A DNA stretch of 64,000 nt from an uncultured virus (IMG/VR IMGVR_UViG_3300028805_000099) (lineage: Duplodnaviria; Heunggongvirae; Uroviricota; Caudoviricetes; Crassvirales), in the IMG/VR virus record IMGVR_UViG_3300028805_000099; one strand, 5' to 3'. Within the stretch, counting starts at the first letter, position 1, and the number at the start of each line of letters is the position of its first letter. The position numbers and the translations under genes were made by a program. The notes under the pieces were generated by a model. It had not been told where the DNA came from and did not search any database. It worked only from the letters and a program-made list of their open reading frames with translations. Of this stretch, positions 27,601 to 57,095 are shown one piece after another.

Positions 27601-28288
27601 CACTCCATACTCCAAACCTATAAAATAGATATAGCATGAAGAAATGGAATGGTTAAGAAGAACTTACCCTTAGTTATCAGGTCAAGAGAGGTTAAGAATA
27701 ATAAATGGACTTATCTAGGTTGCTAATTCTTCTGATAAAGAATATGCTTGGGGTAAGTTTAAAGATGGAATAATGTATATTTCCAATAAAGCTGCTTAGG
27801 GAACTGTTTATCACGAAGCTTTCCACGCTGTAGTAAATTTACTTATGGATTAGAGAGAAATTGATAATATGTTTGATGCAGCAATGAAAAAATATGGAAA
27901 TAAATCAAGATTGGAGTTAGAGGAAAACCTTGCAGAGGATTTCAGAAGATATATGCAAATGAATGAATCACAAGAGGGAAATGTTATAACAAGATTCTTC
28001 AGGTAGTTAAAGAATATAATAACAAGTTTATTCTCTAATGGAATTACATTAAACAATATATTCGGTAGAATAAGTAATGGTGTTTATGTAAATAAAAACA
28101 AGAATGACCTTGCTGAAAAACAAAAGGATGAAAGCTCTGAGATATTAGACTATCATATTAATAAAATATCCTATAAAAATCTTAATCAAGAGTAGAGGAA
28201 TTATTTATTATAGCACTAGATAACTCCTGAAATATATGAATAGCTTTCATAGGAAGAAAAAGAAAGATTGTTATATTGTATGAGTTAA
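21680..28288 (+). CDS. large virion cargo protein with C-terminal zincin motif, about 2202 aa, TAG-recoded
   Basis: ORFs 22283, 22724 and 26387 share one frame; N-terminal Gly-rich hydrophobic region; GTVYHEAFHAV...LEENLAEDF near 27800-27945. Confidence 0.8.
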
Positions 28289-28355: not shown

Positions 28356-31300
28356 TTACCAAGGTCTGGCATAATAGCTAATACTTGTATCAAGCTCACC
28401 AACAAATCTTCCAATTTGTTCTATCTATGCAACTCCATATAAAGGAGCTTTTAAGAAGTTTTTATGCAATGTACTCATTCCTTTGTAAGGTCCTGATTGA
28501 AGTTCATTTGCATAATCTGATGGTGTAATTAAACTTACTCCTAAGTTCACCATATTATTTATACTAGATAATGCAGGTATAGGAGTTTTCACAGTCTTCA
28601 TTGTTTCTTGAATCATTCCTCTTTTTGCAGGAATTGGAGTAAGTCCTCCTAATTCATGCATTTCTCTTTTTGCCATGTATTCAGCAAGCTTTAATGTCCA
28701 AGGTCTGTCTTTATCATCTGGCCATTGAATTAATGATGCTAATGCCCATACAGCTAAGTACTGGAATATTTCAAACAATGACCTTCTTATATTAGCAACT
28801 TCATAATCTTTTAGTTGTGTTTGAGAAGGTGAATAGTTGAATGTTTGCTACCACACTTCTCCTAATTGTATTTTTCCTCTTACACATTCATTTATTACTC
28901 TTACCAAAGTCCTATAATATCCTTCCTATTCCTTACCTAAATTAATATTATACTGTTTTGCCATAAATCTTTTATTCATTTGTGGTTTTATCCACTTTCT
29001 ATATTGTAATAAAAGCCTGCCTATTGCAACTCTATTTGCTGCATTCATATCATCAGTATTGTATACTCCGAATAAACTTTGGTTTATATCTTTGACATAT
29101 AATGAAAATTTGTTAACATCGAATTTTGTACCATCAAGATTCTTTATTGAGGATGTATCAATCGTTTTTACACCATTTCCATCTTCAGTTACCTCTAAGG
29201 CTTCCCACAATGACATTTCTTTACCATCCTTAATAACCCTTTCTCTTAATGCACAAGCAATGGCTGTTCTATTATACAACCAATGGTCTCCTGCATCTTG
29301 TCCTAAATAAGCAATTTGTTCTCCAAAAATCCTTTTTAATAAATTACTATGTTGCTATCTTTTCACCTATTGGTCAAAAGTCTGTCTTACATTAAACAAT
29401 TGGTCAAATAAGGCTAATTTGCTTGTTTTAATGCGTTTTCCAATGTCAGTGGTATAATCTATCATTTCTTGGGCAAAAACTTTATCTGCCTAAAGCAATT
29501 CCTTATAATTGAAAAATTCTCCAGAGGCGGCTTCAATCCTTTGCATTGCTTTTCCAGTAGCAATATTAGCAAGGTTTGCTAACCAGTTAAACCCTAAATT
29601 TGCTAACGATGACCTTCTTAGAATCTCACTTACTACCTTATTGGTATTTATATTAGTATTAAATAATGTTCCGTGGTCTTTTAAATATCTTCCATAAACC
29701 TGACATTCTAAGAAGTCATTTAATTTTTCTGTTATATTACTATTCTATACTATTATATTTTTACTTATTGTATTTCCTAATATCTTAAATCTTTCTATCA
29801 CTTTATTGGCTCCTCTAGTCTACTGTACTTCTAAATTCTCTTTTATAAGAATTCTTCCAATTTCAAGCTAATCCACTATCTTATTAAGTTGCTTATAATT
29901 ATTTGAGGAATAAGCATAACTCATAAGTGTAGAAAATACATCAGTAGATATTTCATTTGGATTTTCAAGTTTAGTAATATACAATGCAGGAATGACCATA
30001 AATTCACTTCCATCAAAATCAACTAAAGTATTTCTAGTGACTTCTCCAAATTGTTGATTATCATCAGACTAGTCAAGAAACCTTTCTTTTTCCAACTGCT
30101 TTAGGTTTTCCCACAAAGCTTGTGGAGATTTTGCAGAATCAGCAAGTCTCTGAAAAGCTCCTTTTCTTACTTGTATACAAGAAAGTTCTTTGACTAATCC
30201 TTCTTTTACTATATTATAGTTCTAGTCTAATTTTAACTTTATAGACATGAATTTATGATATAATTCCTTCTATTTGTCAGAGAAGCTGTCAAAATCTTTA
30301 TTTCTATAATAATTTTTATTTGGACGAAACCCAAATTTCCCTTCACAGTGTATACTTCTCCAAGCATTAAGTTCCTTTAAGTACTCTTTAGCTTTATTTC
30401 CAGTTGGATTTGTACCATATTTATCCTTTAATTCTTTTATTTTTTCATCATAATCAAGCTAGAATTCAGCATAATTAATTTCACTTATATAATTTCCGCT
30501 TTTATTTCCATTTCTATCCTTTTCAAATAACCATTCATAATCTCTTATTTCAGCTTCATCAAATTCTTTCATTAAGGATTGGATTTCTCTAATATCTTTA
30601 ATTGTATCTAATCTAGCAACTCCTTTATACTGTTGTACAATAGAATCAAATACCTATAGTATCATTGATTGTGAGGCACTCATTGGGTCTAACCACCTGT
30701 CAAAGAATGAAATATCTTTTTCTGCTACTTTCATAAGAGTTTCAGCAGTTATTTCCTAACCAGCCTTATCTACCAATCCTTTTGGAACAAAAGGAGTTAT
30801 GAATTTACAAAACAACGGCATTGCATAATATACAAATTTTTGAGATAACTGTTTCTATATCTATACCATCTAGTCAACTACTTCCTATACTGATAATTCT
30901 GTTATATTTCCATTATCATCCAAAAAACTTATTTTTTGTGTGAGCCATTCCTTATCCTCTTCTTCCTCTATTTTTCCATGTAATCTCAAAGATTCTTGAA
31001 TTTCCTCCTAATCGGCTAATATTGCTTGGTTTACACTATCTATAAACTCTTGACAAGAAGCTATGTGTTGCCTTGTTTCTCTAAGAATACTAAATTGCTT
31101 ATCAGTACTGAAATTATTTATGTCATTAAGCCACTTATTCATTCTCTACATCTATGAATTGATATAAGAACCATAATCACAAATACCAGCTACAGTGTCT
31201 CTATCTTTTATGTTTTTATTAAGTTTGGCTATAATATCCCTTATTTTCTCTTTTTTGTCTTGCTTCTAGGATATTTTATATTTTTTGGATTCTATCTATA

Positions 31301-32387
31301 CTGCATTTTTAAGTATATCAAGGTTTCTATCAATTCTTGTACTTAGTCTGTTAAATTGTACATCTCGTTCAGACCCTGCAAGCTATTCTTGAGTAGGAGA
31401 AATAGTACCTTGTAGAATATTCTTGGAAAGTTCTTCCATAGTCTAATCTGCTTCTATAATGGCTTGTTCAATTTCTGAAAAATCATAATCTTCAAATTGA
31501 CTTTGTAAGTAAAATAAAGTTCTATCTAAAATACTATAATCTCCTACTCCATTCCTACTTAAAAGATGGTCTTGAAGTATCTGTCCAAGAGCTTCTTCTG
31601 CCATCAATAATTTGTTTCCGTTAAAAAATACCTTAGTAGGATTATATTCATCCTATAATATGGCCATTAATAACTCATCACTCTGAGCAATAGCGTTAAT
31701 AGCTCTTTGTATTTTTATATCATCCTTGAACAATCCTACAGTAAGGTGGGAAAATTCTTCACTAAGGGCCATAGCACCTTCATAGTTATTAGCTACTCTT
31801 ACAACCTAGGAAAAATCGTTTGCCATTGATTTCACTTTAGAAAAGTCAGTTACTCCTGCTCTTCCTGCCTAAAACTCATAGTCATATAACATTCCTACCG
31901 TAACACCAATATTACCAAATATATCTGATAATCTTCTATTTAATAAAAATGATGAATACTAGTTGTTATATTTACTCTCTTTTTCTTTAGTCCTTTTACT
32001 TATTTTAGTTTTAATTTTATCTCCATCATATTCAAGAGTTGCAATCATTTTATCTCTTAATGGAGATTTCGTATTAAACTCATGGCACTATTCTAACACG
32101 GCCTCAAAATTTTCAAGAGTGTCCTACATAGGCTAAAAGCTATTATCCTGTAGTATTATATTGTTATCTTCTCCTATTATCTATTGTAGATAAGGATTCG
32201 ACAATATAGAGTTTATTGTAGGAACACCCTCATTATCAAGAATGAGGGTATCCCTATAATCATTTATAAAATCTGGATTGATAGCCTAAAGGAATACTTC
32301 CTTTGCTTTTTCATAACCCAAATCTTTCTTCAACCTTTCAAATTGTTTTTTACCTCTTGATGGAGATACTACACAAGATTTACTCAT
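28356..32387 (-). CDS. large virion cargo protein, 1343 aa, TAG-recoded
   Basis: MSKSCVVSPSRG... to ...YYARPW-TAA; ORFs 28425 and 28926 in frame; degenerate zincin-like ALSEEFSHL...EEALG; LLQYRKWI motif. Confidence 0.8.
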
Positions 32388-32405
32388 ATTATATTATATT
32401 TATTG

Positions 32406-35400
32406 TTAATCAAAATCTGCAAAATCACCAAAATCACATAAGCGTTTGTCTAAACTCTACTAAGATTTCTCACTATCATATTTTGGTTCCTACTGTTTAT
32501 ATCCTCTATTTATAGTTATCTAAGTTTCACTATCAGGTAAACTTTCCATAGCTTTCTCCTATCCTTCCAGTTGTTGTTTTACAGAAGAATTTTCTTCAGT
32601 GCTATTATCTAATTCCCAATAAAACCAGTCTGTTGTTACAACTCCATCTTGTTTTTTCTAGGTCTATTTGGAGTTAATAATATACTAGTTTATTTCATCT
32701 ATTGACATATTTGGATTATAGATAGGTGTTTGAGTTCTTAATATAGATATTATAGGAGTAACATCTTCATAAGTATCTTCTTCAACATGTCTTAAGTATA
32801 TGGTATATTTCTCTCCACCAAAGCTATCTTTTCTAGTAAAACTTATAAATTCAGGTTTCTATAATCCTTCAGACTCATCAGTATCTTCAGTAATATATTG
32901 AAATTGTTGAAGACTCTACAGATATTTTACTTGAGAAGGTCTGATACGCTTTGCAAATTTATCTATGTTATTATACATATATTGCTAGGAAAATCTTTCC
33001 ATAAATTCTCTATTAGTAATACTTTCTAACTATCTTAGAATATCAATATATTCAGGGAATTGTTCTATAAAATGAGTACTCAAGAACTAACTATAGGAAC
33101 TATGGTCAACAGCAAATCCATTATAATAGTAAGCATATAGTAGTAAATCCTTTGCAAGTTGCAACGCTTCTGTATTATCCTTATCTTCAATCAATTCATC
33201 AAAGTTTCTAATATAGGTATCTTCTACTGCTGGGTCTGTTTTACCTCCTTTTATCAATACTATTCTTCCTCTCTAGTCAACATCCATCATTTGCATTACT
33301 CCTAATTTCTTTATAAATGATTTATTAGAAGAAAGTAATTCTTTGAATTTATTTGGAAATACATTGAGATAATAATCTCTTTTTTCTAAATAAGACATTC
33401 CATAACCATCTCCAAACAATTCAGTATTAACTAATACAGCCTGTACTAATCTTCTATAGAAATCTTCTATTTGCTTATCTTCTAACATACTTGAAGACAT
33501 ATATTGCAAATAACTAAGTTCTTCTCTTACTTCATCGTTATTCTAAGTAAATAAGTATTTAGAAACCATCTATAATGGTAATTCTGTTCCCAATGTATGC
33601 ATAGCCTATGCCATAGGAATTTTACTCAATAATATCATTCTCCTCAAATCATTTCTTGTCCATTTTTTACTTGCACCATTTTCTATCATTCCTCCTAAAC
33701 CAGAAATAATACTTCGTTTTGGTTTACCAGTATTCTTATTTACTAAAAACTTATATTTGAAATCTTCAACAGCATATACTTTTGCTTGAGCCTGTGCAAG
33801 TGTAGATGAAGCGTTTGTTGGAGAATCTGCCTTTGCAATCTTGCTTAATGCTGATATAGGTTTTGCAAACAATGTCATTTCCTTAAAGAATAATAAACAT
33901 TTCAAAGTGTTCAAAGTGTTTTTCTGTCCTAAAATATCATTATTCTAATTTGTATCGTAGGGTTTTAATATTGCTCTTATAAGGTCAGCAGTAGTGATTG
34001 ATGTGTAATCAAGAGTACTAAGTTCCTATTCACTAAACAATTTAGTTAAATTCTATATGTAAGAATCAATATTGTTATAGCTTTTATCCTATAGGAACAT
34101 GTCTCTTAAAGGTTTTATATTGACTAATAAAGAAATCTCATCAATAGTGAATCCTGCTCTTACCATAAATATTGTAATTCCTGCTGTATTTAAGTTTTGC
34201 ATCAAGTTTGCTAATGACGGGTCTTTCACATTATCTACAGACCCAGCTTGAAAATTTGCCATAACTTTTGTTATCCTTTCTCCTAAACCATTATCTATTC
34301 TGTCTATTTCGTCTATAGTTCTTCCATTAATAAAGAAATTCACCTTTTCATAATTACCATCCTAAGTTTTCTTGGTCTTATTAAGTCTTAACCCTGACTC
34401 CTATAATTTTTGGTGTTGTGAACTTCCGTTTGCATAAGAACCAATAAGGGCTTTACCAGTCATATTCTAAATATAGTTGTATACGAAAGTATCTATACTT
34501 GCAACATTTCTCTTCTACTCATATTTACTAATGTAATTTTCTATATCATCTAATGAAAGACCTTTTGTATTATTTGAATAGAACATTTTCTTTATTTCAA
34601 GCACCACTTCATCTGTGCAAGCGTCTATCTAAGCATCTGTAAAATTCTTTTCTCTACCTTTTTCATCCTTATAGGTTCTTTCATTCTTTAATATAGACCT
34701 TATTATATCATTGTGGGTAAGGATATATGCTGCTTTTGAATATTTTTTAAGAACATCAAAGTTACCAGGATTCTAGAAAATATGTATTGTTTCATTATTG
34801 GTAAGTATTCCCCATTTAAGGTCAAATAAGAAATTATTTCTTTGTTCCCTATTTAATTCTTCAGGTTTAAGTGAAGGGTCATATTGAACAGCTTGATATC
34901 TTATCACATTTCCATCTTTATCCTTGATTTTTTCTCTTTCTCTAAATATAAGAAACATCTTATCAACATCAAAGTCACATCCTGCAAGAGCTGTGATATC
35001 AGAAGCAAGCATTATTGCAGAACCATTTTGTACTGGAAGAAATCCTTTTATTCTTAAAGGGGCTATTGAATATTTATCTTCCGTTGGGATACGATAACCT
35101 ATAGCCTCAAGAAGTTCAGGACATTCCTTCTCCATTCTTTCTATGTCTAATTCCTCATATTTTTCAGTAACTATTTTACCCTATTTTTCATCAAATCTTT
35201 CAACATATTTTTCAATAATATAATCTATATATGCACTTCTCATGTAGAAAGGCATATAACACTCTATATATTTTAGTCGTATATTTGAATCATTAATTCC
35301 AAGTTTCTTTGCCTCCTTATAACTTATAGTTCTTCCACTTCCATCAGTATATTCATATACAACTTGCAATTCATCAGTAAGTCCTATATCAGAAACAAGT

Positions 35401-38400
35401 ATGCTAGCTCCTCCTGTTTGTTTTTGTTTTAATAATCCATTTTTAATAAATGAGAATATAAGTTCTTGGGACTTATACATTTGTGGAGCACAGAAAGGTA
35501 ATCTAGTAACAGTCTTTCCATTTTTATCTTTTATAAGTTGTAATGCTTCTCTAAAAGCTCTATTATATTTTTCATTACCTTTTGTGATTTCAAGCATCTT
35601 ATCAACAAAGTCCTTTAAACTCTCTTCATCACTTACATCAATAATGGATTTTACAGCATAATAGTCGTCCAAAAAATTCTCTACATACAAAGCGTTGTAT
35701 ACCTTTTTAATATCCTTCTCTCCAGCTTCTGCATTAGGTTTTTTAGCAAACACCTAACCATTTATTTCCATTCTAAAATTATCATTTAAGTCAGCTATAG
35801 TAACATTTCTATACTAACTACCATCTGTCTCATCTTTATCAAACAAACTTTCTGGAGTAGGAGATACTATACAATATCCTTCAGTAGGAAGTACTTTAAC
35901 TACATCATAATTAAAATCATATCCATTTCCAGTGTTAGATTTTATCATTCCACTTTCTCTTACTAATGTATTATATACCTCATCCTAATCCATTTGAAGG
36001 GCATCATATATAGCGTTTATCTCTTCTTGGGAATAAGGCATATCTTGGAAATTACTTGCATTATCGTTTTGTGAGTAGAAATATTTTAATATTCTATCAA
36101 AATCAGTTTCTCCCTTACTTCCAGTACTTACAGGAGTGAAGGCATATTCTCCTAAAGGAGTAACTATTTTTCCTTCCTATAAAGCCTTTGTTACCTTTAT
36201 TCTACTATAGTTCAAATCTATTGGGTTAGAACACCCAGTTTTAACCCCGGATTCAAATATTAATGTATCAATACCGCTCTTTTCTAAGAACCTAGACATT
36301 CCTAAAAGTTTTGGAGAATTCTTGGTTTCTCCAGCGAACATTGTGAACATAGCCATAAGTACAAACTCTGAATCCTTATTTTGGTGAGGAACATGATGAA
36401 TATTTCCTTCTGAGTCAGTTTCATCTACTACAGCATATAAGAAAGGTTTTATAGTCTGGTATACAGTATAAAAATCCTGTTTATCCCAAGAACCACTTAT
36501 TATATGTTGATAAGTTTCTTCTAAGTCTTCAGTCCATCTTCCCTACTAATCTAATATCTTTTTATAAGAAGAAATGGACCTTAAAGCCTGAGCATCACTG
36601 TTGTTTACCTTCTTAAATGTACCTAAAATAACCTATTTGTCTATTTCCGTGAGTTTTCCTTCCTTAATTCCTTTCTCACATATGAATCTAATATGATTAT
36701 ATACTCTAGAACGAAACACATCATCTTTTAGGTATATTGCAAGTTGAGTATTACTCTATCCTACAGTATTTAATTTAGTTCCACTTGCATAAATTTCTTT
36801 CCATCTCTTTTGGAAATCTCCAGGATTTTTATAAAATGCTGGGTCTACACCCATCATATGGATTATATTCATTTCAGCAAGCAAGTTATTCCAATAGAAT
36901 TCCTTAAGCTTTCTTTCAAACATATCGTTATTCTCAGCTTCCTATTCTGTAAGAACTTTCTCCTATACTAAATCTCTCTTAATATCTTGTTTGACAGTAT
37001 CTCTTATATCAGAAATAAATCTTGATACATAAGTATCCAATATTTGGTTTATTCCTTGGTCTATAAGAGTATTTTTAGCTTGCTCCTTTGCATAAGAAGA
37101 CATATTACTTTCTTCAATACTTCTAAGTCCTTGAATTAAAGTAATCTAAGTTTCATCAGAAGTACCTTGGTTAATAGGGAATATAGCATTATTGAACTCT
37201 GGAAAGAATTGGAATTCAAGTCCTTTTTTACTATAATTCTATATTTGTTTTCCTCCATTTTCATTCTATCTTCTTACATACTCAATTCTATTAAGTTCAT
37301 ATTTTACTATATTTCTAAACAAAGGAATCATCTTATCCTCGAACTGTCCTTCTCTATCATCGTATTTTATAAACTTAAAGAAAATTGCAGCAGGAGAGTC
37401 AGCAAGGATAGGAGAATTATACCAAGCATACTAGTATCTCATACCACTAGTTTGAGGTATAGAGTAGTACATATGTATAAATCCTCTGTATAGCATATCA
37501 TCAGTCCAAGATTTATAATCTTGCACTTCTCCATTATTATCCTACATAGTAGCCATATGAGCATGTTCTAATTGTTGCATTAATTCATCTTTAGTTCCTT
37601 CACTATCATTAAGAAGGTCTAACCAACTGAAATAAAAATGCTCACCATTACTATCCTAATATACCATCTTTCTATCTCTTGCCCATCTCTCTAACCATTC
37701 CTTGTTTTTTCTTTTATTTTTCAATTTCTTTATTGTAGTAGAGTAATGGCTAGGTTTGGAGAAGCATTGTAAAGCAGTTCCATCCTTCATTCTAACAGAA
37801 GATGAATAATTAAACTCTGACACATAACCTATTTGATTAGCTATTTGGCTATACCAAGAATTATATAGACTAAATATATCAAGGTCCTTCAATGACTCTC
37901 TTCCATTTAAATCCCCAACTATTGATTTTATATTTTCTAACAATAAAAGTATATTAGTCTCTACAGTATCATTATCTTCTTTTAATACCTCTAATGCTGG
38001 TTGTAAAGACTATCTGTTAGTATTAAAACCTATCGCCTTTAGAATCTAAGCAAGCTTGTTGTATACAGAATTATTTCCATCTTCTTCCATATAAGATTGA
38101 AGATTTTTTGTAACATCAGATATTCTATCAAGAATCTTACTAAGGTGTTCTCTGCTTATATTACCCGAAGAATCCCACATTTGCATATCAGGATTCGTTA
38201 TAAGCTAAACATGCTTATTTATGTTCATCTATAATTCATCCATAGCAGCCTGCTATTCTGTCTTTTTAGACATAGGTATCATTTTCTGTACATTAATAAA
38301 AGAACCATCTGGCTGTTCAACGCTTTGTGTAATTAATGTGAGTTCTTGGAAATAATCGTTTCTTAAATCAGCATAAAAAGCATTTGCATAAGAATGATTT

Positions 38401-41400
38401 CTCTATAAAGTCTTCTTTATTCCAGTAAGCCATTTATACTTACTAGTATATTTATCTAATATTGGGAACCTCCAATCTCCTGTTGAAGTTTGTACATTAA
38501 AATCTTCAGGTTCAATACAGTCAGACATTATAAACTTTAATACTGTATGTACATATCTTGGGTCAAGATAGAGTTCATTACCTAAATCATCTTGATTAGG
38601 AGTATTATCAGCCTTCATGTCCTTAATATTCTTTATAATATTAAGAACTATTGTTGAAGTTGTTCTATAAGGATTTGCCTATTTCACATTAAATCCAGTG
38701 ATTTCATTATAACCAGCAGAATTCTCTCCTTCTTGATTAGTTTCCTATTCTTCTGCCTATATATCACTTACTTGTTTTTCTTTACCTTTACTTTCAAGCT
38801 TTATATCTAATATAAGCTCAAATGTGAAAACTGCTTCTTCGACTAATCTATCAAAATTATCTACTATTTTTTGATTTTCCCTAGCTGCATAATCAGTCTT
38901 TGCATTTTTAACTCTTTCTTGATAGCCCTTCTTTACTGATTCTAAGATATTATCAATACCTATAATATTTACTATTGTAGATAAAGGAGTATACTAGTTT
39001 TTAAGTTTTCTTATCTATCTGTTTATTTTTTTCCTTCTTTCCTCTGTAGTTTCAGGTAAATGACTTTCCTAAGCAAGTTCTTTTCTTTTTTCTTTTCTAA
39101 GATATTCGGTATGGTTTTGGAAATCTCTTACAAGAGCATTCACTCTCGCCTTAAGATTGTTTCCAAAAGTAGAATAGAACACAGTGTCATCCGAGTCTTT
39201 TATTTCCATACCTGTAGGAATACCTTCCTAATTTAATGCAGTGGTTTGCTCATTTATAATCATTTCCTTTGTTTTACCAAAGGTTTTCTCATAAACATCT
39301 CTTATTGCCTGCATTGCAACAAGTGCCTTTGCATCCCCAACATACTGGGGGTTATCTACTATTTGCCTATTTTTATTGTATTTTGGATATTTTTGTATAT
39401 CTCTAGTACCTACTCCTGCAAATTTTTGTGTTAAAGTAGGAATATCACATTCAATAAACTTTCCAATTACTCTATCATACTGATACCAATGTTCAGTTGA
39501 AATATCAAAGACAAACACATCTCTTTGTTTATCAGTCATCTTTATTCCAAGCTATACAGCATAATTTGTACCACCAGTTACAGTAGTTCTATTATCATCA
39601 AAGAAAGTTCCTATAGCAAACACAGAGTCTGAATTTGAAATCTACCAAAAGTTTCTGGCAATTAATTCTCCTGTTACCGTTCTGTAATCTATATTCTCTC
39701 CAAGAATTCTGTTTATAAATTCTGCTCCTCTTCTTAAATTCTATTCATTTACTTCAGTTCCTTTAACACCATTTTGTTTTAATGTAGCACTTTTCACACT
39801 TGTTGTATAAGGAGTAAAATGTATAGCATTGGTTAATCCAAATTCTCTGCCTATCTAATCCCAATAGGTATCAGCACCATAGGCTCCTCCAGACAATAAA
39901 ATGTAATTGTTTATATTTGGTTCATTAGTTTCTTCTGTGACTTCCTCGTTGTTTATTGTTTGTAAGTCATCATCAAAACCTGATATTCCCTTACTCTAGT
40001 CTATATTTGTACTTAATTCAACAAGTGAACCACCAAAAGCATCGTCAGAACCTTCTTCAAGAACCATAGTAATATTTCTGCTTCTTGTAAGACCAGTATA
40101 TATATTCTCGGCTTTTCCTTGATTTCCCCAAGCATTGCCTCTAGTTTTTATTTGCTCTTTTTCATATACTGCAATATCATAAGTAGAACCCTATGCTTTA
40201 TGCGTAGTAATAGCATAGCTCATACTTATTTGTGCATATTTGTTTTTCTATGCATAATAGTCACTCCAGTCAGATGAATTTTGTGTAGAAATAGCCTTTC
40301 TTTTTAATTCACTTAAATACCTATTCTATTTATCCATACTTTGTTTATCAGCAATAACATTTACTGCCTAAACAGTTCCATCACTTAGTTTTATAGAATA
40401 TGTGATATAATTTAAGGAATCTCCATTAGGTTCTTCTGATTTCAATACTGAACTCACATCCAATATAACTCCCTCCTCAGCATTATCTATTGATATTCTA
40501 GTATTTGGAATTGTATATGGACTATCAAAAATAATTAATTCTCCTTTACATAATTCATTTGGATTATTTGGGAATAAAGCTTGGTGAATAAGATTATTGA
40601 ATTCGTCTACTTGTTCTCTAAATGGAGCAATTATCTTAATATAATTAGGATTCTCATGGTTAACACCATATCTGAAAGCTTCAATAATTCTCTCTCTTAC
40701 CTTAATGTTATCAGTATTGAATAATAATGCTCCATTTGGAGTCACTACTGTTTTTTCAGCACTTACACTATTTATTGATGAATTTGATTTACCAGTAGCA
40801 ATATCCCAAAACTTGTCAGCATAAGACAATATAGGAGAATTTTCTCCCTATCTAATCCTTTCAGTTAGAGTATCCACCTATATATCCTCTCTAGAAAAGA
40901 CTCCTGATTTACTTGAAATTCCTTTAGCTTTATCTATTGGTCTTAATTGTCCATAATCGCCCAAAAATACTATAATTGTATCTTTCACACTATCCATTTG
41001 TTCAAGTATCTTTGGGGCAACCATTGAGGCTTCATCTACAAATATTAAGTCATAATTTTTAAATCTTTGTTTATTAGGATTTATTGCAAATTCATCCTCA
41101 CTCATTCCATAATTTGCCCCAGCAAGAGTATATAAAGTTTCCTTCTTTACTCCAAAATCCTTCACCTTATTATGTAGTAAATTAACAGCTTTTCCACTAA
41201 GTGCAGATACAGCTATCTTCATTGTAGGATGCTTAGCCTTAAGTTCCTTTATTATATTCCTTATTATTGTAGTCTTACCAGTTCCTGCTTTACCTTGTAT
41301 GGTAATATACTTCTTTCCATCAGTATTTTCTCCACTAAGTTTCTTCTTAATGAACTTTAAAGTATCATTAACTGCATCCTATTGTTCCTATGTAAGCTAT

Positions 41401-44400
41401 ATTGCTCCTTTACCACTACTTACAATTCTTTTTTGTTTAGGTTGTTCAGTCTAAACAGGTTGTTTTCCTCTTAATTCTTCTCTCACTTCCATAAGAAGTT
41501 TAGGAAACTCAGTACCCCATTTACCTTTGTCTTGTGTATGAGTAAGAGTAGCATTACCTGTAGCAAGAAGTCTTTGAAGAGCTTGAGGATTTTGTTCAAA
41601 TGAAGCTTTGATTAGAGCTTTCATTATTTTACTTGAATCTTTATCCCAAGCTTCTGAATCAAAATCTTTTAATGATTTACCAAGCTATCTCGCTCTACTA
41701 GGAGATACTGGCTTATAATCATTAATCAATTCCCTATATATTTTTTCATTTTCTGCATTTTGTGCAGCATAAAATGTTTTTGCTGTCTGAAAAGCAACTT
41801 CAACAGAAGGTTGTGTTCCTTTTAAATTTATCCAATAAGATAAACCTAAATTTTTAAATATATATTCAAAAGGTTCAAAAGGCCTTTCAGCAAAATTACT
41901 TAAATCAGCATTTTGTCTATTAGGGTCATTTTTTCCTGTGCCCCACCAAATATCCATTTTAGTTTCTGGACCAGGAAGAATAGAAACTTGTTGTTGCTGA
42001 GAAGTAGGTTGAGTAGATTGTTGTTCAGTATTTGATTGCTCTAACTCCTATCTTTCAAATCTAAAAGCATCTCTCTCAAGTTCTCTTTGTAATAAGTCAT
42101 TAGTGCTTCTATATTGAGTAGAAGCATCCCTAGCACTATCAAGTTCTCTGAATTTATCCTATGCTAAACTGATAATATCTCTTCCATCTCCATTTTCTTC
42201 TCCCCATTGCATTAATTTACCAGTTCTGACAGAAACAATCTTATTGTCTCTATTCACTACATACTAATTACCTTTATGCTCGACTATAACGGCTCTTCCT
42301 TGTTTTACTGCTAGGTTTGCAAATATTTTTATTCTATCACTGCCTTCATTTGTTGCTCCTTCCTTAAATACTTCCTAACCTTTATCATTAAATATATGAC
42401 TTCCTCTTATGGTATAAGTTCTTCTATATCCTCCATATTCATATGTAACCTATTGAGGTTGTGATTCATTAAGATTCTCATAGAAGGTACCTTCACCATT
42501 AAGCAATACAGGGTTATTTATTATATCAAGTGTTAAAGCTGAAGCTTGTTCTAATAAAGTATTATTTTTACTGAACAGTCTAGTGTATATTTTCTTAAGA
42601 ATATTTCTTAGTTTATCTAATAATGTAACTTTCTTTGTAGCTTTAATAGTACTTAAATCCTCCATTAAGCTAGTATCAGTCCATACATCAGCAATAAATT
42701 CCTCAAGACCATGTTCAGTATAATACTCTTGAGCTTTTACTGGATATACTTTTGCATAAGCATCTATAATTTCGTTTATAGCATTCCTAAATTCTAGTTT
42801 ATGTTGTATCTAAGATACAGTAACATGGTGGAGTATTTCATGTAATAATACCATATCTGCACTACCATCACCATAAAGAGCATTAGTGTTTATCTTAACA
42901 GTCTTACTTTCAGCATCATAAGAAGCTCTGTAAATTCTTCTTTCACCTGATTTTAATACTTGAACAAAAGGACCAGTATATATATAACCCCCTCTACCAT
43001 CACTTATTCTCTATATATCAACTGATTCAAGTTGGAAGTTAATATCATTAAGAATACCTTTTTTATCAAGAAATTCAATAAGTTCGCCATACTTGCCTTT
43101 CTTAAGGTGTCCTATTATAGCTTTCCTAGTCTTCTCATTTTCAGCTTTAGCTTTATTTTCATTTATATATATCTTCTATGATTGCTATAATGATTGTAAG
43201 AAAGAATCCTTCTTTCTATTATTAACATCTGGAACTGCTTCAAGATAGATATTACTTTCTTCAGAATAAGTACCTACATTATCAGTAGCTGATTTAATTT
43301 GATTAGGATTATATACTATATAAGTAGTACCTAAATTATCTTTAACTGCTAATAAAACATCAGAATTAAAGTCAAACACATTCTCAATAATCAAACCATC
43401 TTTTTTGCCTCTAAACAATGATTCAAGTGTTCTTGTAGAATGTATTTTACCATTATATTCTATTTTATTCCAACTTTTACCATTAGCATCAATTATTTTA
43501 GCATCTCTAATATTTAAAAACAAAGGATAAGTTTTTCCAACATATTCAGGTTCTTCTTCATTTTGAATATTTCTTTGATAATCTTTAGAAACTTCATAAT
43601 TAGAAGAAGCATAAATAGCATTTGGTTTTCTTATAGCTATTTGTTTTCCATTGTTATAATCAACTACTTGTTCTTTACTTATATTCCAACCTTCTTTAAT
43701 CCAATCTTCTATTTCTTTATTATAAATCCATTCTTCATTTTTAGATATAGTAGTTTCTTCATAATTTCTAAAAGAAGTTATATTTTTTTCTTTACTACTA
43801 TGATAAACAACCAAAGGCTCACCATTCTTATCTACTACTTTAGAAACACCTTCTCCTTTTTGATAAATAGGTATCTTAATTTTACTTCCATCAGATTTAA
43901 GAGTAGCATCTCTTTCTCCAATTTTAGTCATTCCTCTACCTATGTTATTGTTTAAAGCCCTTAAACCATCTTCTGTAAGGCTTCCCCAAGTAGATACTAT
44001 AGCATCATCAGGAATAGCTTTTGCCAACTCTTCAAAAAGGATTTTAGTATCACCTTTTTCAAGTTTAGATTTATCAGTCTTTAAATGAACACTATATTGA
44101 CCAAATTCTCTATCTTTAACTAATTCAAAATGTCCTTTTTCATGTTGACCTTTAATATAAATTTTAAGAGTTTTATTTCCTTCATGTTCGTTAGGATTAG
44201 AAGTCTCTTCTATGTCAACTCTTGAAATATCTATAGCATCCTTATTAAACTTATTAACTCCAAGCCAATTTCCAAACCATTTTATAAAAGCTTTAGTTCT
44301 AACTTGTAGCCATTGTCTTTCAGTAAGATTAGATTTTTTACCATTAGGTGCAAGGGCATAGTCAAATGTACCATCCTCTTTTAATACAATGTTTCCATTA

Positions 44401-44612
44401 GCAATTGCTTGTTGCCTAATAGATTGTATTTCTTGATTATATTCCTACTCAAACTAATCTTTAATCCATTCTACAGAAGGATAATCATATTCAGTTCTTT
44501 TAGAATCTCGGTTTCTCCAAGTTTGTATTTTAGTCTTTACTACTTCAATAGGAAGCTCTGCTTCTTGAGATAAACTCTTTATCTTCTCATTAGTAACTAA
44601 ACAAGTAATCAT
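32406..44612 (-). CDS. giant virion-associated two-barrel RNA polymerase with ART-like, zincin, NADAR, SF1 helicase and SLOG-like domains, about 4068 aa, TAG-recoded
   Basis: Thirteen minus-strand ORF-track fragments (33273 to 43185) share the frame of ATG 44612 and TAA 32406; catalytic GYRIPTEDKYS...GCDFDVDKM (34962-34976). Confidence 0.85.
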
Positions 44613-44671
44613 ATATTATATATTTTCGATATTATTAACAATAGTATTTTAATGTCTAAAATTATTTTGCC

Positions 44672-44681
44672 TGCAAAAATA
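44672..44681 (-). promoter_or_regulatory. Bacteroidota-type -7 promoter element for the RNA polymerase/cargo operon
   Basis: TATTTTTGCA on the minus strand, between the terminator and ATG 44612. Confidence 0.6.
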
Positions 44682-44739
44682 ATATAATTTATTTAATCAA
44701 TAATTAAAATTAATTGTTTTTTATTATTTATGCTCAAAT

Positions 44740-44778
44740 AAAAAAATAAGGGGTAGCACCAAAACGGCACTACCCCTT
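44740..44778 (-). terminator. intrinsic terminator closing the early-gene unit
   Basis: Minus strand AAGGGGTAGTGCC-GTTTT-GGTGCTACCCCTT-ATTTTTTT. Confidence 0.8.
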
Positions 44779-44812
44779 GAAAAATATATAAAGAAGTCAC
44801 TCTTTTATTTAA

Positions 44813-44935
44813 TCACAAATCCTGTTCATCAGGATAATATTCCTTCATATAGCATCTATAACATAGACTACCAGTATCATTACTATCTTCTATTTCTTTA
44901 CCACAATACTCACAATGTTTTACTTTTTCTTCCAT
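44813..44935 (-). CDS. small zinc-ribbon protein, 40 aa
   Basis: MEEKVKHCEYCGKEIEDSNDTGSLCYRCYMKEYYPDEQDL; two CxxC motifs. Confidence 0.6.
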   Translation of the reverse strand: MEEKVKHCEYCGKEIEDSNDTGSLCYRCYMKEYYPDEQDL

Positions 44936-44947
44936 ATCTTTATAAAT

Positions 44948-45367
44948 TTATTCTGGACAAAACTCAATTTCTTCTTGTTTCCAATCACTACATTGTTCTA
45001 TAAGGTCTTTTACAACTTTTAGTTCCTTTTGTTCTGATTTTGTTAAAGGTCTACAACGAGTAATATCCATTAAATCCTTTAACCTTACTTCTTCTAGATA
45101 AGTCTTTACTGCGACAATAGTTTCAATTGCAGTACATCCTTGTTTCTTATATTCATCCTTCCAAGGTGTGTCAGATGTATCACAATTTCTATAACAACCA
45201 TCTTCATCACAATCTACTTCAAGGTTGTAATTAGTGGTAACTATCGTTACATCTTTACTTAATGTTTCTACTATAGTAACATTAAATTCTTCTTCAGGGT
45301 TTTCTACTTGGTTCCAGGGTGCTGATTCATTATCTGCTCCCAATGGGTAATGATAATTATCGTACAT
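44948..45367 (-). CDS. hypothetical protein (YPLGA...APWNQ family)
   Basis: 139-aa ORF in an operon-like arrangement. Confidence 0.75.
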   Translation of the reverse strand: MYDNYHYPLGADNESAPWNQVENPEEEFNVTIVETLSKDVTIVTTNYNLEVDCDEDGCYRNCDTSDTPWKDEYKKQGCTAIETIVAVKTYLEEVRLKDLMDITRCRPLTKSEQKELKVVKDLIEQCSDWKQEEIEFCPE

Positions 45368-46202
45368 TTTCAGATTTACTTTTATGTTTTCTAATATTAA
45401 CCTTTTCTAACCTTTCTTCGATAGATTCATCGGCTTTGAGAAATATTTTACCACCGATGGTAGATACTTCACCTTTTCCACATTTTCTAATATTACTACC
45501 TGCTATACCATAGGCTCTAGCAGCTTCTTGCGAATTAGGCCAAACTGTTACAAAAGTACCATCAATTGTGTACTCATAAAGGGCAACATATCTACTTTCA
45601 TTTGAGTCATGCCCATATCGTTCTTTTCTTCTTTTTTGCTTTTCTGGAATGGGCTTTTTTTGAAAAGACTCCCCATGATATCTAAACTGGTATCCAGCAC
45701 ATGTACCATATTGGCTTTTGCAGCAACGTGAAATATCTGTACTATGTGTATTGTATTTAGCAGCTGCATCTGTAAGTGCATTTAAAGTCTCAACATATAC
45801 ACCATCTTTAGTATAAACATCAACAGCTTTTGCATTACTGTATCTTACATTATACTGAGGAGTACACCATTCAAGATTTTCAACATGATTATTAACTTTA
45901 TCTTCGTCGATGTGGTTTACCATTGGAAGATTCTCAGGATTTGGAATGAAAGCTTTTGCTACTAACAAATGAATTTCAAAAGTTTTTGCTCTCCCATTAT
46001 CATAAAATCTGGTTTGCATATATCCGTTTCTACCATGTTTTTTATGTAGCTTGATAAGTTCTCCTTTTTTACAAGTATTATAAGTCCCAATACTCATAAC
46101 TCTACCATGAGAACTAACTAGATATTTATTCTCAAATTCAGGACAGGGTTTCCAAATTTCTCCTTCTTCGCTAATTGCGGCAATTTTCTCTTCTATATTC
46201 AT
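45357..46202 (-). CDS. NUMOD4-HNH homing endonuclease with C-terminal NUMOD1-like repeats
   Basis: EIWKPCPEFENKYLVSSHGRV (NUMOD4); HLLVAKAFIPNPENLPMVNHIDEDKVNNHVENLEWCT (HNH). Confidence 0.92.
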   Translation of the reverse strand: MNIEEKIAAISEEGEIWKPCPEFENKYLVSSHGRVMSIGTYNTCKKGELIKLHKKHGRNGYMQTRFYDNGRAKTFEIHLLVAKAFIPNPENLPMVNHIDEDKVNNHVENLEWCTPQYNVRYSNAKAVDVYTKDGVYVETLNALTDAAAKYNTHSTDISRCCKSQYGTCAGYQFRYHGESFQKKPIPEKQKRRKERYGHDSNESRYVALYEYTIDGTFVTVWPNSQEAARAYGIAGSNIRKCGKGEVSTIGGKIFLKADESIEERLEKVNIRKHKSKSENVR

Positions 46203-46217
46203 ATTTTTTAGTTTTGC

Positions 46218-46227
46218 TACAAAAATA
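46218..46227 (-). promoter_or_regulatory. Bacteroidota-type -7 element upstream of the HNH gene
   Basis: TATTTTTGTA on the minus strand, 15 nt before ATG 46202. Confidence 0.5.
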
Positions 46228-46297
46228 CGAAATTATTTTTGATTATACAAATATTTATGGTCAAATTTAGTACCTAGTGCATAAAATCCGCTCTCTA

Positions 46298-46708
46298 TCA
46301 TAATTTTTCTACTTTTACTATTTTTATTTTATTAGATACTAATTCTCCATCAGTACCTAAGTATATTTTACTTCCTTTTGGTATAATGCATACTGCTAAA
46401 CCATTACTACCATGAACTTCAGAATAATAAGGTAGATGAGATTCTGCAATTGCCCTATGCATATATGAATGATATCCGTTATGTACTTCATTATTATATC
46501 TACCTTCTATACTAAATTTAGTATTATATATATTATCAATCAAATATGTATAATCTTGTATAGCGGAATTAATCATTTGTATATCCTTTTTATGCCAATC
46601 AACATTTATAAATTTATATACTTCAAGATTTTTTCTAATTTTGATTGGTATATATTTTCCAAATAGCTTCTTATGTATAGCTGTATTTATATATAAACAC
46701 ATACACAT
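46298..46708 (-). CDS. hypothetical phage protein (GYHSY...CIIPKGS family)
   Basis: 136-aa ORF; motifs VHNGYHSY and CIIPKGSKIYLG...VSNKIKI. Confidence 0.75.
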   Translation of the reverse strand: MCMCLYINTAIHKKLFGKYIPIKIRKNLEVYKFINVDWHKKDIQMINSAIQDYTYLIDNIYNTKFSIEGRYNNEVHNGYHSYMHRAIAESHLPYYSEVHGSNGLAVCIIPKGSKIYLGTDGELVSNKIKIVKVEKL

Positions 46709-46714
46709 TTATTT

Positions 46715-47011
46715 TTAATTACTTTTAGGTCTATAAGATACTGTAATATATTCTTCATATTCACAAGCTTCACAAATAACATCCAAATCTTCCCACATTT
46801 GCATTTCTGAAAAAGATTGATATGCTCCCCAAATTCCTACAAACCCATCTTCAACTTGATATACATTAACTGCTGTACTATACCAGCGATGTTCATCTAA
46901 ATTAAGACCTTCTGCAACTTGAGGAACATCTTTTGGAATAATGTCTTCAGCTTGCCAAAGACTGTGATAATACCCGTTATTTATTTTATCTATTAACTCT
47001 TGCTTTTTCAT
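46715..47011 (-). CDS. hypothetical protein
   Basis: Likely start MKKQEL at 47011, directly after the upstream stop; LDEHRWYSTA motif. Confidence 0.7.
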   Translation of the reverse strand: MKKQELIDKINNGYYHSLWQAEDIIPKDVPQVAEGLNLDEHRWYSTAVNVYQVEDGFVGIWGAYQSFSEMQMWEDLDVICEACEYEEYITVSYRPKSN

Positions 47012-47012
47012 A

Positions 47013-47222
47013 TTAAAATCCAAATTTAGTAAATTCATAATTCTCTGAAACCATCCAATAGCAATCATTTAGATTAAAGTTATATTTCTCTTCCAAACAA
47101 TCTGCCATAAATGTTTCAAAGTTCTCATAATTATCCATTAATTCTTTATCTTCTTTGGTTAATTTAATTACAATACATTCTGCTGTATTGTAATTTAATA
47201 GCCATAAATAGTTATATTCCAT
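47013..47222 (-). CDS. hypothetical protein
   Basis: Likely start MEYNYL at 47222; tightly packed. Confidence 0.6.
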   Translation of the reverse strand: MEYNYLWLLNYNTAECIVIKLTKEDKELMDNYENFETFMADCLEEKYNFNLNDCYWMVSENYEFTKFGF

Positions 47223-47607
47223 TTGTTTCTTCCTTATTATTAAGATATTGGTCAAACATTTGACTAAATAATTGTTTATGCATGTAAACTATTGGAGAAA
47301 CAATATTCCACCTTTCTTTAGCTTCCTTAGAAATTCCTACCAATCTACCAGTTCTATAAGGATTCTTCTCATCTTCCTTAGTATCATCTGTAACTTCTAG
47401 AATAAAAGTTCCTTTTTGCTTTTCTATCAATTCTTTACATTTATCACATAATTCTCCAGTCATACATTCTCTTGGAGCTTCAGCATCATCTTTTAATCTT
47501 CCCATTAAAGCAATACTGTTAGTTAATTCTCCACATACAAAACATCTGACAAGAGAAGGATTTAATCCATGTTTTTCACTTAGTGTTATTGAATCTTCTT
47601 TACTCAT
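47212..47607 (-). CDS. hypothetical zinc-binding phage protein
   Basis: SITLSEKHGLNPSLVRCFVCG...LCDKC. Confidence 0.75.
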   Translation of the reverse strand: MSKEDSITLSEKHGLNPSLVRCFVCGELTNSIALMGRLKDDAEAPRECMTGELCDKCKELIEKQKGTFILEVTDDTKEDEKNPYRTGRLVGISKEAKERWNIVSPIVYMHKQLFSQMFDQYLNNKEETNGI

Positions 47608-47906
47608 AACTCAGTATAATAACATTTTACTACATTTAATTCATTATCTTTTCCAAAATCAAGTTCTTCATTAGTAACTATCGTTCCCCAAAAGTTTACT
47701 GTAAGACCTTTGTTTTTCTTTATTCCACATATTTCAGTCCAATCTTCATCTGAATGTCTGGCATAATAATCATGTTTTCCTTCAGGTAATTCATCAGTGA
47801 AATATGAAGATTCATAACCGTCAGCATTAATTATCAAACCATCATCTAAAACTAATTCAAGCTTCCAATCAGGTTTGCTTTCATTAAATTTGATTCTCTG
47901 TGCCAT
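47604..47906 (-). CDS. LPD28-like (large polyvalent protein-associated) domain protein
   Basis: LPEGKHDYYARHSDEDW...VNFWGTIVTNEELDFG resembles the recalled LPD28 consensus. Confidence 0.6.
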   Translation of the reverse strand: MAQRIKFNESKPDWKLELVLDDGLIINADGYESSYFTDELPEGKHDYYARHSDEDWTEICGIKKNKGLTVNFWGTIVTNEELDFGKDNELNVVKCYYTEL

Positions 47907-48627
47907 AACTTGTATATTTAGCCTTCTTCATATTAAGGTATTCATCTAACTCACTATAATCTTGACTTTTAAATAATATATATGGATTATCTGTGTCTAT
48001 AGTATTAACTGTAATGTTAAAACCAAATTTACTTATAACATTATTAATTAAAGTCTTCCAATAATCGTTAGCTATATTACCCTCAACAACTTTTACTGGC
48101 AATGGTGAATAATCTGATAAACTGAAATTACTGCTTAACACATTATCTAGCTCTTCAACATTATAATCAAGCAAATACATACTATCATTAAGATATTTAT
48201 TATAATTAAATACCCTCAACACTTCAATATTAAATTCAGAGTTTACTCTTAATATTTTTTTCATATTAAGTAACCTTAAATCTCTTGACCATGTGACAAA
48301 ATAGTATTTGGTTAAATCAAACTCTTGATTTAATTCGTCAACAGTAATTAAGTAAGGATATGGTTCAATAAAACTAATATCGTGAATAGTAATAATTACA
48401 TATTCTCCACACTGTTTAATAAATACATGAAGTCCTTTTAAATTTTGATATAATTCTTCTTCATTACCTTTCATCATCCCAAGATAATGTTTATTGCCAG
48501 TATGAATACAATGACCAAAATCGTTACTAGTTATTAACTTTAATTCATCTGGTATTGTTATAGTTGAATCTATAATTCCTCCATATTGTCCTTGTTTAAC
48601 TTTATATGTTTTAAAATTTATATCCAT
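47884..48627 (-). CDS. hypothetical protein
   Basis: 247-aa uninterrupted ORF. Confidence 0.7.
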   Translation of the reverse strand: MDINFKTYKVKQGQYGGIIDSTITIPDELKLITSNDFGHCIHTGNKHYLGMMKGNEEELYQNLKGLHVFIKQCGEYVIITIHDISFIEPYPYLITVDELNQEFDLTKYYFVTWSRDLRLLNMKKILRVNSEFNIEVLRVFNYNKYLNDSMYLLDYNVEELDNVLSSNFSLSDYSPLPVKVVEGNIANDYWKTLINNVISKFGFNITVNTIDTDNPYILFKSQDYSELDEYLNMKKAKYTSYGTENQI

Positions 48628-48648
48628 AACTTTTATTATTTATAAAAA

Positions 48649-48990
48649 TTATTTATCTTCACAGTTTTCTAACTTAGACAATCTTTCTTGAAGAGGAGTT
48701 AAAAGATTATTCTGAATCTTCTCAATCTTTCTTTCTAAAGCAAATTTTTCATCATATCCAATATAATATTCAGTGTCTTTGCTTTTAAGGTCATCCTCCT
48801 CTAAAATAAAGCACTTCTTAGGACCATAAATAGTAGCAAAATAACCACTTTTACTTTTATATTCTTCATTATTTATCATTGGATTTCTTCCAACGAATTG
48901 AATAATTAAATCTTCAAAGTCAGGAGTAATCATTGTAAAACAATCTCCTACTTTAATATCTTTAAGACTTGTTAATTTTTGTAATTCCAT
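48649..48990 (-). CDS. hypothetical protein
   Basis: 113-aa ORF. Confidence 0.7.
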   Translation of the reverse strand: MELQKLTSLKDIKVGDCFTMITPDFEDLIIQFVGRNPMINNEEYKSKSGYFATIYGPKKCFILEEDDLKSKDTEYYIGYDEKFALERKIEKIQNNLLTPLQERLSKLENCEDK

Positions 48991-48993
48991 AAT

Positions 48994-49224
48994 TTAAAAA
49001 ATTGGCGGTAAAAACTATATAGTTCTAGTAGGGTCTATTATTGTATGAAATTGTAGTAATCGCCTATCTAAATCCAATTGGTTTTTTAATTGTGCCAAAT
49101 GGTCTTCTATAGCAACTATTTCTAAGTTATTATCATAGACTTCTCTGCCACAATAAGCACATACTTTCTTATCTTCTTTATATTCAAATTTAACAGACCC
49201 ACAAGATTTACATTGTGTTTCCAT
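48994..49224 (-). CDS. zinc-ribbon protein (ends at TAG 49015, or at TAA 48994 with read-through)
   Basis: CKSCG...CAYCG; read-through adds QFLPPIF and ends 3 nt before the next ATG. Confidence 0.65.
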
Positions 49225-49397
49225 TATAACTTTAATTGTTTATCAATATAGTTAATAATCTTTCTTAAATCCCCTTGGATTTTCTCTCTTTCTGATGTAG
49301 ATAGTTTACTACCTTCAATAGCAGCACAACTATCACATTCCATAGCAAGGGAGCTGAGTTTATTCCTCAGCCCCACTATCCATTTGTGTCTTATCAT
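49224..49397 (-). CDS. small hypothetical protein, 57 aa
   Basis: MIRHKWIVGLRNKLSSLAMECDSC...KQLKL-TAA, TAATG-coupled to the next gene. Confidence 0.5.
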   Translation of the reverse strand: MIRHKWIVGLRNKLSSLAMECDSCAAIEGSKLSTSEREKIQGDLRKIINYIDKQLKL

Positions 49398-49635
49398 CTT
49401 GTTTTGTTTCTACTTTTTTCATTACTTCACCTGCATATAGTAAAATATGCTCCATATGAGTTTTTGTGTCTTTTTTAAATTCATTAAGAACATCTTGAAA
49501 TTTCTTTATCATTGGAAAGTCTTTTCCAAAGAATCCTTTCATACAGTCAAGAAAATCTTGATAATCTTCAATATTCTTGTTTGTTCTATTAAATACAACT
49601 TTCCATTCTTGCCAAATCCAATCTTTTGGAAACAT
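49360..49635 (-). CDS. hypothetical protein
   Basis: 91-aa ORF with AGGAG leader. Confidence 0.65.
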   Translation of the reverse strand: MFPKDWIWQEWKVVFNRTNKNIEDYQDFLDCMKGFFGKDFPMIKKFQDVLNEFKKDTKTHMEHILLYAGEVMKKVETKQDDKTQMDSGAEE

Positions 49636-49658
49636 AATTACTCCTATTTATTTTGATT

Positions 49659-49922
49659 TTAAGGAAATACATATAATATAACATATTGTTCACTATAGTC
49701 GTCTGGTAATCCTTCTGAAGTATAGCCACTTAATGGAGGTACTCCACATCCAAAAACTCCCATATTTATCATATTCCCTTTCCAAGTAGTAGTAAATACT
49801 CCTTCAACAGGATATACATCAATGTGGTCATTAGGAAATCCTGCACTTTTATCAATGCCTAAAAGACATTCTTTATCTTGAGGCATCTTTTGCAGTTCCT
49901 CTATAAGTTCTTTAGTTGTCAT
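49659..49922 (-). CDS. hypothetical protein (MTxKELIEELQK family)
   Basis: 87-aa ORF. Confidence 0.7.
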   Translation of the reverse strand: MTTKELIEELQKMPQDKECLLGIDKSAGFPNDHIDVYPVEGVFTTTWKGNMINMGVFGCGVPPLSGYTSEGLPDDYSEQYVILYVFP

Positions 49923-49924
49923 AG

Positions 49925-50401: not shown

Positions 50402-50425
50402 TTTAATAAAACTTTAATCAATTTT

Positions 50426-50842: not shown

Positions 50843-50854
50843 AGTTACAATTAG

Positions 50855-52618: not shown

Positions 52619-52620
52619 AT

Positions 52621-53376: not shown

Positions 53377-53380
53377 AGTT

Positions 53381-53584: not shown

Positions 53585-53589
53585 AATGC

Positions 53590-55425: not shown

Positions 55426-55426
55426 A

Positions 55427-56004: not shown

Positions 56005-56066
56005 AGCTCAATAGTTTTTTCAATTCCACAAAGTTTTAATGCGTGTTGTAATAATGTTATCTGGAA

Positions 56067-56932: not shown

Positions 56933-56936
56933 AGTT

Positions 56937-57092: not shown

Positions 57093-57095
57093 GAT

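Follow-up and report, generated by a model that had tools for sequence, protein, structure and literature searches.

On its minus strand, at positions 32406..44612, a 64,000-nucleotide stretch of an uncultured Crassvirales virus (IMG/VR record IMGVR_UViG_3300028805_000099; hereafter the window) carries a single gene for a protein of 4068 amino acids (aa), which we assign by sequence as an orthologue of the virion RNA polymerase gp50 of phage crAss001 and in which TAG codons are to be read as Gln. The modules that lie between its N-terminal leader and its polymerase core are optional, exchangeable cassettes. Overall, the best explanation, and in our judgement a probable one, is a polymerase that is made late, packaged and ejected together with an exchangeable payload for early infection. 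The features of the gene, all on the minus strand, are the following.

32406..44612 (-): whole open reading frame, 4068 aa, about 468 kDa, TAG as Gln; predicted crAss001 gp50 orthologue
44439..44612 (-): conserved Cys-bearing N-terminal leader, aa 1–58 (homologue alignment)
44262..44438 (-): ART-PolyVal, putative N-terminal part, aa 59–117; no TAG; uninterrupted with the ART in L005, absent from P0002
43848..44261 (-): GNAT-like domain, aa 118–255, within the ART (AF2 model, fold searches)
43248..43847 (-): ART-PolyVal, putative catalytic part, aa 256–455 (PF18760; H271, Y334, candidate D414); no TAG
42468..43052 (-): zincin-like domain, HEILHH (591–596) and E638 (motif; alignment)
42138..42467 (-): unassigned 110-aa module (homologue occurrence)
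41463..41972 (-): NADAR, predicted phage (gp30.3) type (E938, K945, H1025); TAG-poor, allele unlike that of P0002
40053..41420 (-): SF1B Dda/RecD2-like helicase (motifs I, II, III, V, VI)
39273..39920 (-): SLOG/DprA-like domain (phrog_768; family alignment)
32409..39197 (-): crAss-type virion RNA polymerase body (6VR4 profile match; 27–30% identity to references)

Translated with table 15, the frame ran from ATG at 44612 to TAA at 32406 with 84 TAG, no TGA and TAA only as the final codon. This agrees with an earlier note on this DNA, which had described a single frame interrupted by TAG alone; in-frame TAA or TGA that would split it were looked for, and none was found internally. The remaining five frames of the same interval contained 103–265 TAA apiece. 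Translation with table 11 gave fragments of at most 280 aa, so that the gene is indeed missed by standard-code annotation, as the note had also proposed, and its entry in the 50%-cluster library was such a 280-aa fragment (P0139). The reading of TAG as Gln is indicated because TAG falls at positions Q1255 and Q1474 of the helicase, which are Gln in solved helicases. Moreover, 75 of the 84 TAG codons align with Gln in P0002, a homologue of about 90% identity that may or may not be recoded itself.

The recoding is regional within the window. In-frame TAG was present in 15 of the 18 listed genes spanning 244 to 44612, and from 44948 onward 27 of 28 listed genes were free of it, the exception having TAG confined to a 4-codon upstream extension; none of the 46 listed genes ended in TAG. 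The boundary is marked by one further feature.

44748..44778 (-): terminator-like 14-bp hairpin and T run, dividing the TAG-free upstream block from the recoded gene (consensus match only)

Terminator-like sites, again by consensus match only, numbered three in the window against 0.3 expected, and promoter-like sites were about as frequent as chance would give (6 seen, 5.8 expected). A regional pattern of this kind fits the late-gene TAG recoding published for beta, delta and zeta crAss-like phages (PMC7886860, PMC9523058). No suppressor tRNA was found within the 64-kb window, the sole tRNA of which is a tRNA-Met at 3945–4020 (+), between the gene of the major capsid protein and the one after it.

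The C-terminal polymerase part (2260 aa) is closest to crAss-like virion polymerases. Residues 1805–4068 matched 76 phage records, the best of them (27–30% identity) being the polymerases of cr85_1, cr128_1 and crAss001. A single-sequence search did not reach PDB 6VR4, the gp66 protein of phi14:2; for this a profile was needed (A2, 12 homologues), which matched it at E 1.1e-40. The catalytic DFDVD lies at 34976–34962 (3213–3217, with D3213, D3215 and D3217), exactly where the earlier note had placed it, and its Val in position 4 agrees with the DxDxD of gp66-type polymerases, in which that position is Ile or Val (bioRxiv 2020.03.07.982082). The neighbouring genes follow the crAss001 order, with gp50 and gp49 facing gp47, 46, 45 and 44 on the opposite strand, and the capsid, ring and PolA genes agree; by its muzzle, cargo 1, capsid and ring genes the region is the cargo block of a Crassvirales genome. 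The profile match and this synteny bear out the virion RNA polymerase identity that the note had proposed. The likeness to crAss001 gp50 and phi14:2 gp66 thus comprises the core, the DxDxD with Val in position 4 and a Cys-bearing leader; crAss001 gp50 differs in having a slot of about 200 aa and the standard code, as against a slot of about 1750 aa, seven modules and 84 TAG here. In crAss001, gp50 is contained in virions, where gp47, gp49 and gp50 form the cargo and need partial unfolding for exit (PMC10172136), and gp66 is reported to be injected, to transcribe early genes and to prefer single-stranded templates in vitro (bioRxiv 2020.03.07.982082). By orthology, the 4068-aa protein would likewise enter the virion, be injected and transcribe early genes.

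Next to this conserved core, the composition of the slot varied strongly among relatives. Among the 120 best of 388 homologues, many of them near-identical and the longest 3827 aa, NADAR was detected in 8, SLOG in 7, the unassigned module in 5, the helicase in 3, the zincin and the ART in one each and the GNAT-like insert in none; these searches used the window's own domains as queries, so that distant copies can be missed. The roughly 90% identical P0002 lacks aa 59–444, has another NADAR (39 of 100 residues identical at aa 901–1000) and carries an extra domain of about 150 aa, and its shared 100-aa blocks (501–800 and 1101–3900) have 76–97 identical residues. Residues 641–785 of P0002 form another unassigned slot module of about 145 aa, which recurs in P0017, P0093, P0100, P0236, L008, L087 and delta-type proteins. 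In a wider set of 225 core-bearing proteins, enriched by the search with the GNAT-like insert, 173 showed none of the seven modules and several carried a DUF1848 or PD-(D/E)XK domain. The note had asked whether the architecture is already common: insert, NADAR, helicase and SLOG occurred together, in other orders, in 6 of the 225, and all seven modules only in the 4068-aa protein.

No close relative was found in viral contigs, and metagenome contigs gave one distant fragment; a helicase joined to this polymerase was absent from the 15 best of 1700 reference phage records. Full-length crAss001-type frames had 2418–2756 codons, and a cpYpsA SLOG was present in two of the seven crAss001-type slots scanned. 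The crAss001-type polymerase genes L032–L074 differ by 140–340 aa in the N-terminal slot, several of the inserts being without a Pfam match. None of the 20 direct and 25 inverted repeats listed was a clear cassette-border repeat. Taken together, the comparison shows a payload slot into and out of which small domains move as the phage recombines with other crAss-like phages.

Codon usage differed between the swapped modules and the remainder of the gene. The share of TAG among Gln codons was 0/14 in the ART and GNAT-like modules (Fisher p 0.001) and 2/18 in NADAR (p 0.011), that is 2/32 for the two swapped stretches combined, versus 82/197 elsewhere; the GC content at third codon positions was 8% in the ART module versus 16%. 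The helicase, which is common to P0002, had a TAG share of 10/25, like the host gene. In the best carriers other than P0002, the modules were more similar than the cores to which they are joined: 66 versus 24% identity for the ART (in L005), 79 versus 23% for the GNAT-like insert, 53 versus 30% for NADAR and 49 versus 27% for the helicase. TAG was unused in L005 and L076, and 82 relative frames plus 9 more listed had 0–2 TAG each, in a search whose Gln-containing patterns bias against recoded relatives. Because the swapped modules are TAG-poor and most closely resemble copies on polymerases with distant cores, the simplest reading is that ART with its insert and NADAR were recently imported from standard-code relatives. 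No published precedent for this relation of TAG share to cassette age was found in the literature search.

The domains that the earlier note had named in the slot were all recovered, to differing degrees. NADAR exceeded the Pfam cut-off (47.9 vs 35.1, aa 936–1037), and its H1025 aligns with Glu of 8bau and 2b3w. T4 AdfN is reported to require the NADAR Glu and Lys (PMC11825919), and the His has been described as a mark of phage NADARs (PMC11543638, PMC11125620); by its catalytic Glu/Lys and last-strand His, the domain can be assigned to the phage (gp30.3/AdfN) type. With the anti-DarTG1 protein AdfN (gp30.3) it shares the E-x6-K pair and the phage-NADAR His, although AdfN exists in T-even phages as a separate protein (PMC11825919) and NADAR here is fused to virion cargo, with a predicted function. 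The helicase (residues 1070–1518) matched phrog_325 at E 9.5e-63 and AAA_30 above the Pfam cut-off, and its motifs could be aligned with PDB 8jx6, 9kwf and T4 Dda (3upu). The SLOG-like domain (residues 1568–1714) matched the DprA-like phrog_768 at E 1.5e-9. The HEILHH of the zincin was exactly at 42842–42825, as the note had it, and HExxH and the downstream Glu were kept in an alignment of seven sequences. Low-complexity Q/T/E linkers separate the modules, and a Pfam scan detected no nuclease or intein domain in the gene.

The unassigned module occurs in 23 other proteins besides the five homologues, at 54–61% identity. Other beta-type crAss polymerases also have it at the N-terminus, whereas in the delta type it is C-terminal; most of the 23 are C-terminal halves of delta-type polymerases. 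Nothing was returned for it by family scans, by a search for stand-alone homologues or by a scan of contigs. A suspected likeness to NUMOD4 found no support in a comparison with the window's NUMOD4-HNH protein.

At the N-terminus, a Cys within the first 10 residues was present in 117 of the 120 homologues, and an alignment of 25 leaders showed conserved C, W and P; the leader may have a role in packaging or ejection. What the earlier note had described as one ART-like region (about 44355–43260) is an ART (PF18760, aa 261–448, 42.2 bits vs cut-off 31.2), but not a single region: it is split by a 138-aa GNAT-like insert, residues 118–255, as judged from L005, which carries the same ART without insert. 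The candidate third ART residue, D414, is conserved in most aligned copies; a single-sequence model of ART plus insert reached a pLDDT of 35. The AF2 model of the insert had a pLDDT of 91. Acetyltransferases made up 35 of 36 listed Foldseek rows (best E 0.0098), and a VIA search gave a best Z of 7.1 (root-mean-square deviation 3.4, 106 aligned), values below the tools' clear-match levels that point weakly to a GNAT-like fold. An atlas lead was likewise weak (0.90; Acetyltransf_1 on 27% of members), and sequence searches with the insert alignment brought up no relevant entry in PDB or Pfam. The acetyl-CoA loop of GNATs has the motif R/Q-x-x-G-x-G/A; the family consensus has LTxxxK at its place and a conserved WGxxSxGG further on. 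The family comprises 145 relatives. A match could be located in 143 of them, and in 11 of these both flanking motifs place the insert within an ART; it also occurs without an ART around it on polymerases and on gp47-like and gp49-like proteins. In P0122 (residues 2441–2578) the insert is 92% identical despite a distant flanking ART, which suggests that it moves on its own.

The explanation favoured above would run as follows. A Steigviridae-like (beta) crAss phage would make the protein late, while TAG reads as Gln. As expected from the orthology with gp50 and gp66, the protein would be packed in the capsid and ejected ahead of the DNA, and its C-terminal body would transcribe the early genes. 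The domains in the payload slot, which extends from the conserved leader to the core, presumably act in the first minutes of infection. Here NADAR would remove from phage DNA the ADP-ribose on its guanines, or a comparable host mark, host targets could be modified by the ART and by the GNAT-like fold nested in it, SLOG may bind or process a nucleotide, the helicase may unwind or clear incoming DNA, and the zincin may cut the chain; the polymerase would work without any of these modules. Activities in counter-defence, predicted from domains and motifs, are the most likely, and the catalytic residues that were checked are in place (NADAR E938/K945/H1025, the helicase motifs, HExxH and Glu, and DxDxD).

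Several points weigh against this explanation. The zincin had no family library match at the cut-off and none in Pfam, and the SLOG-like domain also had no Pfam match. In the ART, H271 and Y334 are present and D414 is only a candidate. For the insert, no Foldseek hit had E ≤ 0.001, Z was below 8, and the canonical acetyl-CoA loop was not found in the family consensus. P0002 retains the ART tail motif, so that loss in P0002 is as plausible as gain here. The codon test covers a single gene, and an unguided test of the longest TAG-free run of Gln codons gave p 0.06. NADARs outside DarT operons have often been reported to fail in protecting cells from DarT1. Finally, the NADAR and ART-tail joins are bridged by no single contig.

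The earlier note had envisaged one integrated, injected machine. Its domains, polymerase identity and recoding stand, whereas the integration is weakened, because the helicase occurs in 3 of the 120 homologues, modules are exchanged even between strains of about 90% identity, and four of the same modules are found, differently ordered, on other polymerases of uncultured crAss phages. In its strict form, in which the whole chain functions as a unit and the fused helicase gives the polymerase access to double-stranded DNA by opening it, this account draws on the report that single-stranded DNA is a good template and double-stranded DNA a poor one for recombinant gp66 (bioRxiv 2020.03.07.982082), on the intact helicase motifs and on the helicase being an older resident, shared with P0002 and with a host-like TAG share. 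However, 117 of the 120 homologues and crAss001 gp50 lack a detectable helicase, which makes a required DNA opener unlikely; SLOG intervenes between helicase and core, and the helicase position differs in other proteins. We regard this account as quite unlikely. Hardly more credit is due to a polyprotein that its own or the gp47-like zincin would cut into effectors, the fusion serving packaging. Linkers between the modules would suit it, and cleavage has been proposed for fused crAss polyproteins with a zincin (Drobysheva et al.) and for MPTases (Iyer et al., PMC5512222), but the zincin is found in one of the 120 homologues though many carry cassettes, the N4 virion RNA polymerase with its MPTase is reported to be packaged unprocessed (Iyer et al., PMC5512222), and no conserved cleavage motif was evident. 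Such processing would be compatible with the ejected polymerase and its payload.

That the cassettes are neutral or selfish hitchhikers in a tolerant loop, without benefit, seems improbable. Their gain and loss are fast, and gp47-like and gp49-like proteins, as well as cr130_1, carry the same GNAT-like and ART modules; against this, distant copies keep the catalytic residues, no nuclease or intein was detected in the gene, and each copy adds about 190 kDa of cargo, which is costly. An assembly chimera, with modules of different phages artificially joined, is very improbable. Three contigs of run X1, with depths of 15, 14.1 and 16.2, tile 32000–45200 with 0 differences, although X1 may be the source of the record and is then not independent evidence. 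The contigs overlap by 30 nt at 41554–41583 (the conserved NADAR end) and 43268–43297 (the ART tail), and these breaks coincide with the branching of other copies; as to the breakpoints at domain junctions that the note had considered, the contigs tile the gene throughout, and neither the NADAR nor the ART-tail join is spanned by one contig. One contig holds leader and ART together, the backbone order of P0002 is identical, and L005 also shows leader, ART and zincin. In run X3, from a different study, eight listed pieces were without difference, none covering the ART, where X3 depth may stem from other phages. The X3 letters differ across 41500–41553, a hint of another NADAR allele. The best-covering runs carry sheep or bovine gut labels; runs with small word shares were left aside.

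Beyond the favoured explanation lies a more speculative extension, somewhat short of even odds: the Cys leader may be a portable packaging signal and the slot a strain-level hypervariable bay for injected counter-defence enzymes, among them an undescribed GNAT-fold family that inserts itself into ARTs, with the TAG share dating the cassettes in recoded phages. Since crAss001-type genes vary in the same slot, the proposal is testable in a cultured phage. If the payload is active, abundant gut crAss phages would carry on their injected polymerase a variable counter-defence kit, which standard annotation does not see and which could contribute to host range. Useful handles are offered by the two strains that differ in entire cassettes, by the nested family of GNAT folds and by codon usage as a marker of cassette age in recoded genes.

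The principle of fusing an RNA polymerase with a peptidase and an ART is already known from N4-like phages, whose virion RNA polymerases are fused to MPTase and ART, with GNATs adjoining ARTs (Iyer et al. 2017, PMC5512222). These injected polyvalent polymerases resemble the present protein in their zincin, their Tox-ART-HYD2-type ART and the GNAT that typically adjoins the ART. They differ in that the N4 polymerase is T7-like, and here a GNAT-like fold from a family without Pfam match lies inside the ART; the words SLOG and NADAR are absent from the main text of that paper. Among crAss-like phages, cr130_1 (Suoliviridae) has SLOG-like, NADAR and DUF7831 domains on a 5801-aa polymerase chain, followed by a cargo gene with ART-PolyVal and HExxH, but its modules are C-terminal and it has no helicase. 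RefSeq calls this polyprotein (L002 6778–24183) a 'DprA-like protein', after its small SLOG module. The exact module order was not found in a literature search that took in PMC11054128 as well as PMC7886860 with seven of its supplements, with Fig. 3 of the latter, Yutin et al. 2018 and most subscription papers outside it.

Two further cargo genes lie beside the polymerase gene. The first resembles crAss001 gp49 in size and position.

28356..32387 (-): recoded cargo gene of gp49-like type for 1343 aa, following downstream of the polymerase gene after 18 nt, with a Cys-bearing leader start

A gp47-like cargo gene at 21680–28288 (+) encodes 2202 aa with 68 TAG and bears, close to its C-terminal end, a zincin motif of its own, which gives the phage two candidate cargo proteases. 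The TAG-free block at 44948–63875 (-) contains genes for an HNH endonuclease, LPD28, Thy1, DUF932, PNKP, an RNA ligase and PolA, of which PNKP and the RNA ligase suggest an RNA repair counter-defence. Elsewhere, a beta-type polymerase gene (L089) was observed on a 137-kb contig of a Prevotellamassilia metagenome-assembled genome.

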